This document shows, in pieces, positions 794-12,591 of a stretch of DNA of 64,000 bases. The notes below the pieces were generated by a model. The model saw nothing but the letters and a program-made list of their open reading frames with translations, did not search any database and was not told where the DNA came from. The DNA is from Candidatus Poribacteria bacterium. Its GTDB lineage: Bacteria; Poribacteria; WGA-4E; GCA-2687025. Both the position numbers and the translations under genes were made by a program. The stretch lies in assembly GCA_963665845.2 (NCBI GenBank), contig OY762492.1, positions 704,001 to 768,000 of the forward strand, written 5' to 3'. Position 1 is the stretch's first letter, and every line of letters starts with the position of its first letter.

Positions 794-2746
794 TTGGAGA
801 GTTTGATGAAAAGCGACTGCCGCAGCGCGCGGCGTATTCTACGCGCAGCGATCCTGTTTCTCGTCTGCTGCGGATGGAGCGTCTCCGCAAACGCGGAAGA
901 ATTCGGCGACATCCAGGTCATCCCGGAATCGAGCAGATCGGACAACAACGGGACGCATGGGTATGCGCTGTATCATTTTATGGTGTCCAACCGCTCTTCC
1001 ACCAAGACGCATGAAGTGGAGCTGCGAATTCCCGGGAATTCTTATATGTCAACGAGCGGAAGTCGGATTCACAGGCTATCCAAAAAGTTTAAGGCGGCTC
1101 CGAATTCCACCGTTTATGTGCCGTTGTACCAGCCGGCTGTACGGATGACCGGCGACGGGGTCGGCGTCTACATCAACGGGCGGGAACAGAATTCAAGCAT
1201 CGCCCTGCGCCGCAGCGATCATGGGGCTTACACAGCATTGACGGCAAGCCGTACCAGTTCAGCCTCCGCATGGACTAGCGTTCGGTCGGGAATGTTTGAG
1301 CCGCGCGTGCTGATCAGTTACAGCGCCGATGAATCGGACCTGCGCAGAATTGCGTCGCTTTCTCCCGTCGGACTCTCCGCTTCGCCCTCCGTTCCGCCCT
1401 CCCCTGGCTTCACTGGCGGCTCCCCTCCAGGTTTCACTGGGGGACCGACCGTGACGATCCGACCCTCCGGAGTCGCTCGGACGGTTTCTGGTCCCTCCAA
1501 CGTCAAGTTGATCCATGCGAGCGGATTTGAGTCGAACTGGCTCAGCTATTCCTCCTACGACGGATGCGTTCTCGCGCTCTCCGACGCGCAGGGGCTTGCG
1601 CCGAATGAGCTTTCCGCCCTGTGGCAGTATATCGAGTGCGGAGGTTCCGTTGCCGTCATGGGCGACGGCAGCGACGGCAAACTGCCGGAGGCTTGGGCGG
1701 CTCTCGACCCGCAGTTGGCGAATAGAAAGCTGGACAACAACACCTTTGAACGGTACCGAGTGGGCATGGGGTTTCTTTTCTTGTCAGGTCCGCCTGATCA
1801 GCTGCTCGCCAACAACCAGCCCGCCGCTTCTGCAATCGCGGAGTCATGGACGCAGTCTGGGCATACTTGGGGGACGCTTCCGACAGCGTCCGGCGCGAAT
1901 GCGTCTCTTGAGATGGTGAAGCCGCTGGATTCACAAGCGTCTCTTCGGCAGATGTTCATTGCGATGCTGGCGTTCGCCGTTCTGATTGGTCCGGTCAATC
2001 TGATTGTTCTTGCGAAGCGCAAGCGTCGTTCCTGGGTGTTCTGGACGACGCCGGCGGTATCGGCGCTCGCATGTGCGGCGGTTTTTCTTTACGCGGCGCT
2101 TGCGGAAGGCTGGGGGCAGCACACCCGCTACGCGTACTTGACGACGTTGGATCCGGAGGTCAACCGCGCCGCCACGATCGGCATGGTCGGTTTCTATTCG
2201 CCGATGTCGCACAGTTCGGGGTTGATGTTTGAAGACAGCACCGAGGTGACTCCGCTGATCGCCGGCAGTCCCGTTTCAGGTTCGGTGGACTGGACAAAAG
2301 GGCAGCATTTCAAAGGCGACTGGGTGCAGGCGCGCATTCCCCGCCACTTCAAACTGCGTAAAAACGAAACGCGGCGCGAACGAATCAACCTGGTCAGAGA
2401 CGGCGGGCAGCTGAGCATCGTGAACGGAATCGGCGCGGACATCAAATCGATTGTGTACCGCGCTCATGACGGGCGCCGGTACCAAGCGAGCGGCATCTCC
2501 AAGGGGGAGAAAGCGCCGTTGAGCGAGATTTCAAATACCGCGTCTGCCTCGGTGTCTCTGCGCGAGGCGTATGCGAATCGCGACTGGTACTCGTCGATCA
2601 AGAGCATGCGAGACAACCCGCTGCAGTATCTTGAGCCTGGATGGTATATAGCCGAGCTGGAAGAGAATGTGTTTGTTGAGGAGGCTCTAGACGGCGCCAG
2701 GGTGAAGCCGTCCATCGCCATGCTGACGGGCGAAGCGAGCGAATGA
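794..2746 (+). CDS. Large membrane-anchored extracytoplasmic accessory protein of an ABC system
   Basis: 650-aa ORF with a signal-like N-terminus, a central TM pair (FAVLIGPVNLIVL...WVFWTTPAVS) and a Pro/Gly insert; lies directly upstream of an ABC ATPase. Start could be ATG 806. Confidence 0.7.
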   Translation: MESLMKSDCRSARRILRAAILFLVCCGWSVSANAEEFGDIQVIPESSRSDNNGTHGYALYHFMVSNRSSTKTHEVELRIPGNSYMSTSGSRIHRLSKKFKAAPNSTVYVPLYQPAVRMTGDGVGVYINGREQNSSIALRRSDHGAYTALTASRTSSASAWTSVRSGMFEPRVLISYSADESDLRRIASLSPVGLSASPSVPPSPGFTGGSPPGFTGGPTVTIRPSGVARTVSGPSNVKLIHASGFESNWLSYSSYDGCVLALSDAQGLAPNELSALWQYIECGGSVAVMGDGSDGKLPEAWAALDPQLANRKLDNNTFERYRVGMGFLFLSGPPDQLLANNQPAASAIAESWTQSGHTWGTLPTASGANASLEMVKPLDSQASLRQMFIAMLAFAVLIGPVNLIVLAKRKRRSWVFWTTPAVSALACAAVFLYAALAEGWGQHTRYAYLTTLDPEVNRAATIGMVGFYSPMSHSSGLMFEDSTEVTPLIAGSPVSGSVDWTKGQHFKGDWVQARIPRHFKLRKNETRRERINLVRDGGQLSIVNGIGADIKSIVYRAHDGRRYQASGISKGEKAPLSEISNTASASVSLREAYANRDWYSSIKSMRDNPLQYLEPGWYIAELEENVFVEEALDGARVKPSIAMLTGEASE

Positions 2747-2774
2747 ACATGGAAAGGGGCTGAAAAGCGTCCAT

Positions 2775-3716
2775 ATGGAAGTGAAGATCAACCATTTGAA
2801 GCGGTACTTTGGGCAAACGCGCGCCGTGGACGACATCTCGTTTTCGTTCTCTACGGGGGAGATTGTCGCGTTTATCGGTTCCAACGGAGCCGGCAAAACG
2901 ACCACGATGCGCATACTTGCGACGCTGGATGAGCCGACCGACGGCGATGTGGAGCTGGACGGGGTCTCGGCGGTGAACCATCCGGAACGGGTGCGGAAGC
3001 TGATCGGATATATGCCGGATTCGCTGCCGACCCATCGGGACATGACGGTTCATGAGTACCTTGATTTTTTTGCGCGCGCCTACGGCATTGCGGGCGATAA
3101 ACGGGCGCAGACCATCGACGATGTGCAAAGTTTCACGGGGCTTGGAGACATACGCGGCAACACGCTCCATTCGCTTTCGAAAGGGATGAAGCAGCGGGTT
3201 AGTTTGGGGCGGGCGCTGATTCATGACCCGCCTGTGATGGTGATGGACGAGCCGGCGTCGGGGCTTGACCCGCGCGCGCGCATTGAGCTTCGGGAGCTGC
3301 TGCGCATCCTTGCGGATCAGGGCAAGGCGATCCTGATCAGCTCCCATATTTTGACGGAGCTGTCGGAGATATGCGGTGGGGCGGTCATCATTGAGCAGGG
3401 AAAAATCGCCGCCGCTGGAACCGTGGACGAGATACTTTCCCAGCATGAGGCGCAGACCGTTTTGGCGGTGCGCCCCGCCGGCGATCTTGAAACGGCGCGG
3501 CAGGCGCTGATGCTTCTTCCGAATGTTGAAAATGTCGCCGTCGTCGGAAACGAGCTGGAAGCGCGCATCGCCGGCGGAGAGGAAGAAGCGAGCGCGATAC
3601 TGGGCGAGCTGATGCAACAGGGAATTCAGATTGCCGAGTTCAAGCGGCGCGGCGGCGACCTTGAATCGCTGTTTATGCAGATCACCGGCAAAGAGGCTGA
3701 AGGCGAGGGGGAATGA
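2775..3716 (+). CDS. ABC transporter ATP-binding protein (exporter type)
   Basis: Walker A GSNGAGKTT, signature LSKGM, Walker B MVMDEP, SSH switch. Confidence 0.95.
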   Translation: MEVKINHLKRYFGQTRAVDDISFSFSTGEIVAFIGSNGAGKTTTMRILATLDEPTDGDVELDGVSAVNHPERVRKLIGYMPDSLPTHRDMTVHEYLDFFARAYGIAGDKRAQTIDDVQSFTGLGDIRGNTLHSLSKGMKQRVSLGRALIHDPPVMVMDEPASGLDPRARIELRELLRILADQGKAILISSHILTELSEICGGAVIIEQGKIAAAGTVDEILSQHEAQTVLAVRPAGDLETARQALMLLPNVENVAVVGNELEARIAGGEEEASAILGELMQQGIQIAEFKRRGGDLESLFMQITGKEAEGEGE

Positions 3717-11030: not shown

Positions 11031-11118
11031 CCCGCCGCGCGCGACTGCGCATAACTATCGGTAGCAAGCGCGGCGCAAGTGTGTTAGCATAACGGACGAT
11101 GAGAGAAGGGGTACGCGC

Positions 11119-12591
11119 ATGAGCAGGCTGAACGCCATCGCCCGCAGATTTGACAATCGGATGAATCCGATCGTTGTGAAGGAGCTGCGCCAGACGTCGC
11201 GCGGAAAATTCTTGATTGTGATTCTGCTCGGTTTTCTGTTTATACAGTTGGCCGTTACAGGCGCGGTGTCGTTCTTCGCCACCGTGACGACAACGCCTGG
11301 GCCCGCCCTGTTTCTCTCGCTCTTCGGTTTCTTGACAGCGGCGAGCGGCTTGTTGATACCGGCGTATGCCGGGTTCCGACTCGCCCAAGAACGCGCCGAC
11401 ACGAACGTGGACCTGCTGTTCGGCACCTCGTTGAAACCAGCCTCGATTGTCTGGGGTAAAACGCTTTCATCGGCGATTCTGGCGGCGCTGATCTACAGCG
11501 TCTGCATGCCGTTTATCATCATGACCTATCTGCTGCGCGGCATCGATCTTCCGTCGGCGTTTCTGCTGACGGCCATCAGTTTTTGCGCCGTGCTGCTGAC
11601 GACTCAAGGCGGCATCTTGATCGGATGCATGCCTGCAAACCGCGTCGTCAAGGGGATGGTGGGGCTGTTCGGGCTGTTCACGATCTTTTCGCTGCTGATT
11701 TCAGGGGTGGTCTATCTCGTTACGAGATTGTTTGGAGGATCGAACATCATGGCGCTGTTGATGAGCCGGAACGGGCTTTTGACGGCGCTTGGGGTGCTTG
11801 TCTTGTGCGTTCTTCTTGGGATCGGGTTCTTTTTGATCTCGGCGGCGTTTATCAGTCCGGCGTCAGCGAACCGCGCGTTTGCTCCGCGGGTCTATGCGAC
11901 GGGGGTCTGGCTCTTGTCGCTGGCTGTCGTCGTTGTTTGGGGGCAGACCGCCTCCTCGGTGGAGCCGATCGTTCAATGGATGCATGTTTTCCAATTCATT
12001 TTTGGATGGGCGTTGTGGGTCAGCGTGAGCGAGCGGGATCGATGGGGCTTGCGCGTGCGTCAAAAAATACCGCGTTCCGGCGCGCTGCGCGTCCTTTCGT
12101 TTCTTTACTACAGCGGGTCGGCGGGCGGAATGGTCTGGTCTTCGGTCGGAATTCTGTTGACGTTTATTTTTGGAGCGGTTGCGATTTCCGCCTCTGCCGG
12201 CACGGTCAGCTCGATAGAGTTTGAAAAAGTTGCCTTTTCGGCGTTCAATACGTGGATTGCGGGGATGGGGGCGTTTTTGATTCACCGCGCGTTTCTCAAA
12301 AACCGCATCTCCAGCGCATATACCTGGTTGATTGCGGTCATGCTTTATATGGGGAGCAGTTTGCTCTGGGTCATGTATATGATCAGTGTCGGCAGCGCCG
12401 GGTCCATCGGCGCGCTTTCCTCCCCGCTGACTTTACTGATGCGGGGCGTCTCCGCTTTAAGTACCGATCCGCCGGTGAACGCAGCGGGCGTGTTGGCGCT
12501 CGTTTTGGGATGCGTATGCTTGCCGTGGATGGCGCGGCAGGTTGCCGCCTTCAAGCCGTATTCTCGTTCAACCAACGCTCCGCAAGAGTAG
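11119..12591 (+). CDS. ABC exporter permease, paralog 6 of 6
   Basis: MNPIVVKELRQTSRGKFL; purine-rich RBS after an 88-bp gap. Confidence 0.8.
   Translation: MSRLNAIARRFDNRMNPIVVKELRQTSRGKFLIVILLGFLFIQLAVTGAVSFFATVTTTPGPALFLSLFGFLTAASGLLIPAYAGFRLAQERADTNVDLLFGTSLKPASIVWGKTLSSAILAALIYSVCMPFIIMTYLLRGIDLPSAFLLTAISFCAVLLTTQGGILIGCMPANRVVKGMVGLFGLFTIFSLLISGVVYLVTRLFGGSNIMALLMSRNGLLTALGVLVLCVLLGIGFFLISAAFISPASANRAFAPRVYATGVWLLSLAVVVVWGQTASSVEPIVQWMHVFQFIFGWALWVSVSERDRWGLRVRQKIPRSGALRVLSFLYYSGSAGGMVWSSVGILLTFIFGAVAISASAGTVSSIEFEKVAFSAFNTWIAGMGAFLIHRAFLKNRISSAYTWLIAVMLYMGSSLLWVMYMISVGSAGSIGALSSPLTLLMRGVSALSTDPPVNAAGVLALVLGCVCLPWMARQVAAFKPYSRSTNAPQE

Follow-up and report, generated by a model that had tools for sequence, protein, structure and literature searches.

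One ATPase and six tandem permeases in a Candidatus Poribacteria genome: a probable lineage-specific expansion of a type V ABC transporter

Why is the gene for a single ATP-binding cassette (ABC) ATPase followed by six different permease genes? The question is raised by a locus of Candidatus Poribacteria bacterium, which is contained in a window of 64,000 nucleotides (nt), i.e., the whole stretch of DNA that was analysed (GenBank assembly GCA_963665845.2, contig OY762492.1, positions 704,001 to 768,000). The locus consists of eight open reading frames (ORFs), all intact and all on the plus strand, which encode an accessory protein, an ATPase and six permeases. The source genome of the window is called G000 here, and the array is located on its 3.95-Mb contig C1; a genome of the same genus, G001, served as the main comparator. 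The array was found to be real, to have further accessory copies outside the window, and to consist of parts of known kinds in a duplication-prone genome. The explanation that we favour, with slightly more confidence than doubt, is a lineage-specific tandem expansion of a type V permease, matched by ten predicted periplasmic partners, in which one ATPase likely drives several envelope export machines with different preferences for cargo.

The accessory gene (positions 794 or 806 to 2746; the ATG at 806 yields a protein of 646 amino acids (aa)) is one of ten paralogs. It is followed by the gene for an ABC ATPase (2775-3716), which was classified as DrrA/GldA-like based on its motifs and a family scan. 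Next are the permease genes p1 (3713-5194, 493 aa), p2 (5185-6573, 462 aa), p3 (6564-8078, 504 aa), p4 (8075-9538, 487 aa), p5 (9546-11030, 494 aa) and p6 (11119-12591, 490 aa), with a size range of 462-504 aa. Most of the last outer loop is missing in p2, p3 is the most diverged copy, and the terminal copy p6 has kept the last position also in G001. Overlaps of 4 or 10 nt were found at the ATPase/p1, p1/p2, p2/p3 and p3/p4 junctions, while p4/p5 and p5/p6 are separated by 7 nt and 88 nt, respectively. Inspection of all ORFs thus agreed with the original prediction, i.e., six intact permeases behind a single accessory gene and a single ATPase, with overlapping or near-abutting junctions, and the conserved permease blocks named in it were present in the alignment. 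The number of promoter-like sites did not exceed chance (3 found, 4.7 expected). The pairwise protein identity of the permeases is 41-54%, with the exception of p4/p5 (81%). For this pair long near-identical DNA tracts had been claimed. Shared exact runs do exist (nine of at least 30 nt, the longest of 93 nt), but the two genes are only 86% identical on the DNA level, and they appear to be recent duplicates rather than near-identical copies.

It could be argued that strain alleles were stacked into a false tandem array. A single contig of 7,500 bases matched positions 636-8135 without difference in two of four sequencing runs, and these 7.5-kb contigs reach from the accessory gene into p4. In run X1 the p4-specific and the p5-specific pieces each had a depth of 26-29, compared to 20-23 for the flanks, which is approximately single-copy, and in run X3 the pieces common to p4 and p5 were at double depth (57.5 and 59.7). 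The depths in run X2 were noisier (12.8-43.5), and one p4/p5 piece pair was at half depth (12.8 and 13.4). This pair would fit to an artefact, as would the p4/p5 junction, which was bridged by none of the listed contig pieces of the four runs, and the origin of all runs from one study, which is possibly the source of the assembly itself. However, the contig coverage in two runs and the single-copy depth in X1 speak against it, and the copies are well past the allelic range of identity. Independent support comes from G001, which contains an array of the same kind and makes an assembly artefact very unlikely. As far as contigs and depth could test it there is no chimera, and the array stands.

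The six copies are not a fixed set. In 31 of 35 Poribacteria genomes with the permease a single copy was found, while G000 has six, G001 has five, and the genomes G026 and G113 have three each. The five copies of G001 have a different make-up: p3 has no ortholog, a single p4/5 gene is present, and one paralog is missing from G000. The same six orthologs are therefore not universal in relatives. The lineages of p1, p2, p4/5 and p6 persist within the genus across several assemblies, and the p4/p5 split, with a synonymous divergence (dS) of 0.25, is slightly younger than the split of G000 and G001 (median ortholog dS 0.31). More than one permease match was detected in 11 of 75 related loci (on ten contigs), some of the matches being partial, and grouped proteins, which are a proxy only, suggested relatives with seven copies and with five copies plus two fragments. 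In the permease tree, from which ORFs below 330 aa were left out, all copies of this genus formed one long-branched clade, and the expansions L048 (four permeases and three accessories), L037/L059 and L085 were located elsewhere. A single clade of the six G000 permeases was rejected (approximately unbiased (AU) test, p 9e-41). A single clade of the multi-copy Poribacteria permeases was also rejected (AU p 6e-5), and therefore the expansions are independent. Five versus six copies, gains and losses of lineages, and G000 copies that do not form one clade are in line with the birth-and-death process that had been proposed for the array. In L085 (6969-12395, Desulfobacterales) four permease copies were seen, two of them partial, with no ATPase or accessory gene within the fetched flanks.

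What the array was derived from can be read from the 75 related loci. The conserved gene order is a 460-aa membrane protein, MoxR, accessory, ATPase, permease, DUF58, a BatA-like vWA protein, and a large vWA protein. The ATPase was present in 70 loci, the accessory in 64, MoxR in 59, DUF58 in 56, the 460-aa membrane protein in 53, the BatA-like protein in 50 and the large vWA protein in 46; many loci end at contig edges, and L086, on the same contig as L085, was left out. The MoxR protein scored 207 bits with AAA_3 and 48 bits with bpMoxR. The nearest related loci belong to Candidatus Poribacteria, the farther ones to Planctomycetota, Verrucomicrobiota, Anaerolineales and others. In G000 all cluster genes have been kept, but they are scattered, with the MoxR/DUF58/vWA orthologs at about 2.01 and 2.20 Mb. 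Gene order thus shows that the ancestral state, as reconstructed from these loci, was one accessory, ATPase and permease gene inside a MoxR-DUF58-vWA cluster, which was broken up in this genus. Permease and accessory genes were then duplicated, recombined and lost, each at a rate of its own, whereas the ATPase gene remained single. Of 31 genomes an identical subset of 10 carries the permease and the accessory, and in the larger set of 151 Poribacteria genomes the permease was found in 35 and the accessory in 34. The permease family as a whole comprises 1,786 clusters at 50% identity (E <1e-30). A literature search retrieved no description of the cluster or the array, although subscription papers on MoxR neighbourhoods and supplements may hold one, and term searches of PMC3909097 and PMC8546597 gave nothing relevant. 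Between the gene of the 460-aa family and moxR, G000 carries Pnkp-Hen1 RNA repair genes (L106:6725-10680).

Gene conversion had also been suggested for the array, and recombination between copies was supported for the ends of the permease genes. Based on informative sites, the first 40 codons of p1 side with the paralog that is present only in G001 (17 versus 7), while its body sides with p1 of G001, so that p1 reads as a gene with a recombinant start. The sister genes p4 and p5 have a common body and ends of different ancestry: the end of p4 sides with p1/p2 (13-14 versus 2), and the ends of p5 side with the G001 gene. The crossovers map to the conserved N-terminal block. Long conversion tracts among the permeases were not established; a silent-site run test of 55 gene pairs gave one low value, for p4/p5 (p 0.0016, about 0.09 after correction).

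The ATPase contains the Walker A, signature, Walker B and H-loop motifs, and it matched PF00005 with 101 bits (cut-off 25). It is the sole close copy in G000, the next genomic match having 39% identity. Its best NCBIfam match was GldA, with 232 bits well below the equivalog cut-off of 402.6. The N-terminal half of the permease matched GldF with 19.7 bits (cut-off 288.5) and PF12698 weakly, again below cut-off, and no Pfam or NCBIfam model was above cut-off for the permease or the accessory. Profile searches of the sequences of solved structures yielded nothing for the permease, the accessory or the C-terminal half of the permease. In the Atlas no usable match for the C-terminal half was found, and a full-length relative led to unnamed or weakly ABC-2-labelled clusters. 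A structure model of the permease, built from 15 sequences, reached a predicted local distance difference test (pLDDT) score of 71 and, together with hydropathy, indicated 12 helices. Residues 13-249 of the model were superimposed on NosY with a Z-score of 17.9 and a root-mean-square deviation (rmsd) of 3.3 over 217 aligned residues, and residues 9-251 gave Z-scores of 13.6-17.9 with NosY, ABCG2, CcmB and PmtD. The N-terminal half is thus predicted to have the type V ABC fold, i.e., six helices plus connecting and coupling helices. The stretch 194-216, where a re-entrant helix pair would be expected before the last helix of the domain, had a pLDDT below 50.

The C-terminal half repeats the six-helix plan and has an invariant E-R..G..P-R motif in the basic loop that links helices 2 and 3 of this half. 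This loop is in register with the ABC-2 coupling loop of another family (HHalign E 0.17, a weak match), and the comparison outscored all 30 column-shuffled controls, which the comparison with its own N-terminal half did not. Among the top structural matches Rv1217c was the only one that spanned both halves (rmsd about 16 Å over 363-379 residues). The C-terminal half may thus be a degenerate second transmembrane domain, making the protein a fused two-domain permease as in Rv1217c; we hold this for slightly more probable than its opposite. If so, pairing of permeases is unnecessary. The combinatorial permease pairs that had been suggested for the array were not supported; both transmembrane domains may already be contained in a single permease of 12 helices. 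Alternatively, each permease could be a half-transporter that carries six additional helices as a further domain, in which case homo- and heterodimers of the six paralogs would form up to 21 channels. It would explain why a clear type V fold is restricted to the N-terminal half, why the C-terminal half has no consistent Pfam family (ABC-2 matches in 0 of 55 members), and why the two halves do not match each other significantly in HHalign; in addition, the best fold match, NosY, is built from two single-domain chains. However, one permease gene suffices in most relatives, so mixed pairing is not needed, and the C-terminal half has six helices and the invariant loop in coupling-loop register. 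We regard the half-transporter as unlikely; it is partly compatible with the favoured explanation, and the probabilities of the two overlap.

The accessory protein is composed of a signal peptide, an immunoglobulin (Ig)-like beta-sandwich, a class-I GATase-like/GIFT domain, two helices that form a membrane hairpin, the inner loop of which is basic, and a beta domain at the C-terminus (model pLDDT 88, signal peptide read off the sequence). Based on the signal peptide, both soluble parts would be periplasmic. The IFT52 N-domain was matched with a Z-score of 8.9 (rmsd 3.2, 138 aligned residues), tied with other GATase-like folds, and the GldG-type family PF09822 was matched below cut-off (E 0.012, 15.3 bits, cut-off 34.7). 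A mu-homology domain was considered for the C-terminal domain (Foldseek E 7e-5, rmsd 8.5; Z-score 7.1), but the similarity was taken as that of a common beta-sandwich, not as kinship. Ten accessory copies were found in G000 and seven in G001, all intact, and they form one genus-level clade. The G000 copies are located in the window (one), at C1:367266-378396 (six) and at C1:3554823-3560762 (three); two accessories directly upstream of the G001 operon are located elsewhere in G000. Recombination between copies is clearer here than in the permeases. The copies a1 and a2 are 91% identical on the DNA level over the C-terminal domain and 48% over Ig and GIFT, and a3 and a4 are identical over Ig in the assembly. 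The accessories can thus be described, from their alignment, as a variable head on a homogenised stalk.

Are the copies diversifying? The ratio of non-synonymous to synonymous substitution rates (dN/dS) was 0.35-0.52 for ortholog or sister pairs of the permeases, 0.36-0.47 for the accessories and 0.19 for the ATPase. The background of 109 G000/G001 gene pairs, from which pairs below 55% identity or outside dS 0.1-0.8 had been dropped, had a median of 0.16 and a 90th percentile of 0.37, and 15 pairs of single-copy permeases of other Poribacteria had 0.10-0.28. In the expanded permeases dN/dS was 0.29 inside, 0.49 in the membrane and 0.76 outside (interval 0.57-1.03), and in nine pairs of single-copy permeases it was 0.21, 0.19 and 0.29, respectively, for regions drawn by hand from hydropathy and the pLDDT-71 model. 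In the accessories the values were 0.63 for Ig, 0.53 for GIFT, 0.23 for the membrane hairpin and 0.33 for the C-terminal domain. These codon comparisons show that the predicted cytoplasmic face of the permease is conserved, while the rates of the helices, the outer loops and the distal domains of the accessory are roughly two to three times those of single-copy relatives or of conserved parts. Comparison of the site models M8 and M8a for the permeases gave twice the log-likelihood difference (2dL) of 22.7, with about 10% of sites assigned to a class near 2. The 2dL was 13.4 without gap flanks and 13.3 for seven closer genes without the N-terminal block. It dropped to 2.1 without the outer loops, and the same value was obtained with 12 single-copy controls that had been matched for tree length. 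Of 37 candidate sites 18 were located in outer loops, which make up 66 of 373 codons. The outer loops thus change faster, with a signal of positive selection.

Several points weigh against the favoured explanation. All whole-gene dN/dS values are below 1, and the interval for the outer loops touches 1. Apart from the hand-drawn regions, the site models were run with our own code on a fixed tree, and recombination as well as loop misalignment inflate them; the site-model signal of the accessories hangs on 1-2% of sites and was not relied on. The fused-domain proposal leans on a weak profile match, and in the model the halves are not packed as in Rv1217c. G026 and G113 carry three permeases but one accessory, so the two expansions are loosely coupled outside the genus. 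Furthermore, contig C1 of G000 has 22 tandem arrays of at least four genes, 12 of them of at least six genes (2,809 ORFs); duplication is therefore common, and no special cause is needed.

This last point is the core of a neutral or near-neutral explanation, in which frequent tandem duplication yields redundant copies that drift under relaxed selection without a new function. The rates of other arrays are also raised (about 0.16-0.37 for arrays of binding proteins), copies come and go between species, and crossovers fall in the conserved N-terminal block. On the other hand, the 6 + 5 permeases and the 10 + 7 accessories that were examined are all open and full length, four permease lineages were retained across several assemblies, and the cytoplasmic face is held at 0.29. 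In addition, the class above 1 needs the outer loops and is absent in the controls. Neutral amplification is a rather unlikely explanation.

An arms race would account for the positive-selection signal in the outer loops and for the variable head on a homogenised stalk. Contact-dependent toxins use ABC permeases as inner-membrane receptors. Loops and heads could be inner-membrane entry points for phage DNA, such toxins or bacteriocins, and they would vary to escape, the transport job being unchanged. However, six variants at once would widen the exposure unless they are expressed singly, the overlapping genes look like a single operon, neither a switch nor an invertible element was observed, and the membrane helices diverge as well. 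The related proposal of a phage- or host-exposed surface was not supported: BamA, TamB and TonB-dependent proteins are encoded, so the cell has an outer membrane and the permease loops would face the periplasm. An arms race is regarded as quite improbable.

The tandem arrays of G000 include WD40 proteins, binding proteins and others; a family of about 110 WD40-like proteins contributes one array of nine genes and several of six or seven. A separate ABC-2 permease family of 460-520 aa is far more strongly expanded in other Poribacteria, with at least ten PF12679 matches in 30 of 61 genomes. About 16 such ORFs lie within 60 kb near one ATPase ORF in G040:C8:14000-73999 (L149-L151). PF12679-type expansions also occur in G020, G028 and others, often as alternating pairs, and many such genomes are without the permease family studied here. 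The combination of a single motor and many permeases thus recurs within the Poribacteria. In G000 a second ABC ATPase gene is followed by three tandem membrane paralogs of 500-540 aa (C1:2120585-2126051), and two further operons resemble the GldAFG type by size and sequence (C1:295265-298683 and C1:1331861-1335680), one of them with a fused gene of 963 aa.

Known systems share parts with the array. NosD is a beta-helix protein, and to our knowledge no arrays of NosY paralogs are known. NosDFY (PDB 7o0z, 7qba) resembles the array in its type V fold and its combination of ATPase, permease and periplasmic partner. In contrast, the array encodes permeases of twice the length and a partner that is built from Ig and GATase-like domains and is not NosD-like, and none of the genes in the loci that were read was recognised as a nos gene. 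GldAFG of Flavobacterium is similar in that GldA was the best NCBIfam match, GldF was matched weakly, and the accessory may carry a GIFT-like domain, but the scores are far below the cut-offs, and the central hairpin, the extra C-terminal domain, the MoxR/DUF58/vWA context and the Poribacteria host are different. Loss of GldG has been tied to impaired secretion (PMC5682007). Rv1217c-Rv1218c of Mycobacterium tuberculosis is a type V transporter with one permease gene of about 500-550 aa and 12 helices and one ATPase gene; its two-domain nature is proven and here suggested only, and the parts of the source that were covered mention no periplasmic partner, MoxR cluster or paralog array (PMC11406275). 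The arCOG01314/DUF4350-vWA-MoxR system, itself a prediction, has a membrane-anchored GldG-like extracellular protein encoded with MoxR and vWA genes, but it is archaeal, the protein has a single C-terminal helix, and no type V ABC transporter is listed in the sections covered (PMC5898192). There a secretion or membrane-remodelling role was predicted for the similar gene set (PMC5898192). For the vWA-MoxR ternary conflict systems a term search of the paper found no ABC, permease, DUF58 or GldG (PMC7159879).

How would the favoured machine with one ATPase work? Whichever permease is at hand, its conserved cytoplasmic loops would be the docking site of an ATPase dimer, each permease chain would supply both transmembrane domains, as Rv1217c does, and the accessory would form a periplasmic cap in the manner of GldG or NosD. 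The unit would most likely move or hand over an envelope cargo, e.g., a lipid, a lipoprotein or a protein client matured by MoxR/vWA, and would not import small solutes. It would act like GldAFG or NosDFY, as a member of neither, with MoxR, DUF58 and vWA as chaperones. Variety would come from the choice of permease and accessory, not from permease pairs, and the copies would be co-expressed. Duplication would give variants, crossovers in conserved blocks would keep them compatible, and selection would diversify the cargo-facing parts. The boldest form is a mix-and-match machine with one motor, six membrane cores and ten periplasmic heads, the heads having variable tips on stalks that are homogenised by recombination. 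As many as 60 combinations could then exist, diversified by selection, and they would be based on a MoxR-coupled export system without previous description, which is shared by Poribacteria, Planctomycetes and Verrucomicrobia; this form we consider fairly unlikely.

Past p6, at positions 12615-18656 of the window, a ProV/OpuA-like ATPase gene and two OpuAC binding-domain genes, one of them fused to a permease, were found, followed by genes that presumably resemble egtB and egtD of ergothioneine synthesis. Two copies of the palindromic repeat ATTCCC-N8-GGGAAT lie upstream of the accessory gene (positions 315-700). C1 contains 866 copies of the repeat, among them a single N7 and a single N9 variant, and we take it to resemble dRS3 of Neisseria. 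A second hairpin repeat, C-rich/G-rich, has about 495 copies genome-wide.

Taken together, the parent cluster is large and lacks matching family models for its permease and accessory, and its hosts include culturable groups (Planctomycetes, Verrucomicrobia), so that its function is testable. The expanded form is a natural experiment, in which fixed surfaces, such as the ATPase face, can be compared with surfaces that would tune specificity, i.e., the outer loops and the Ig and GIFT domains. Should heads and cores prove to be interchangeable, the locus would represent an unusual route to ABC transporter diversity; otherwise it would be just a further tandem array of a genome that is prone to duplication.

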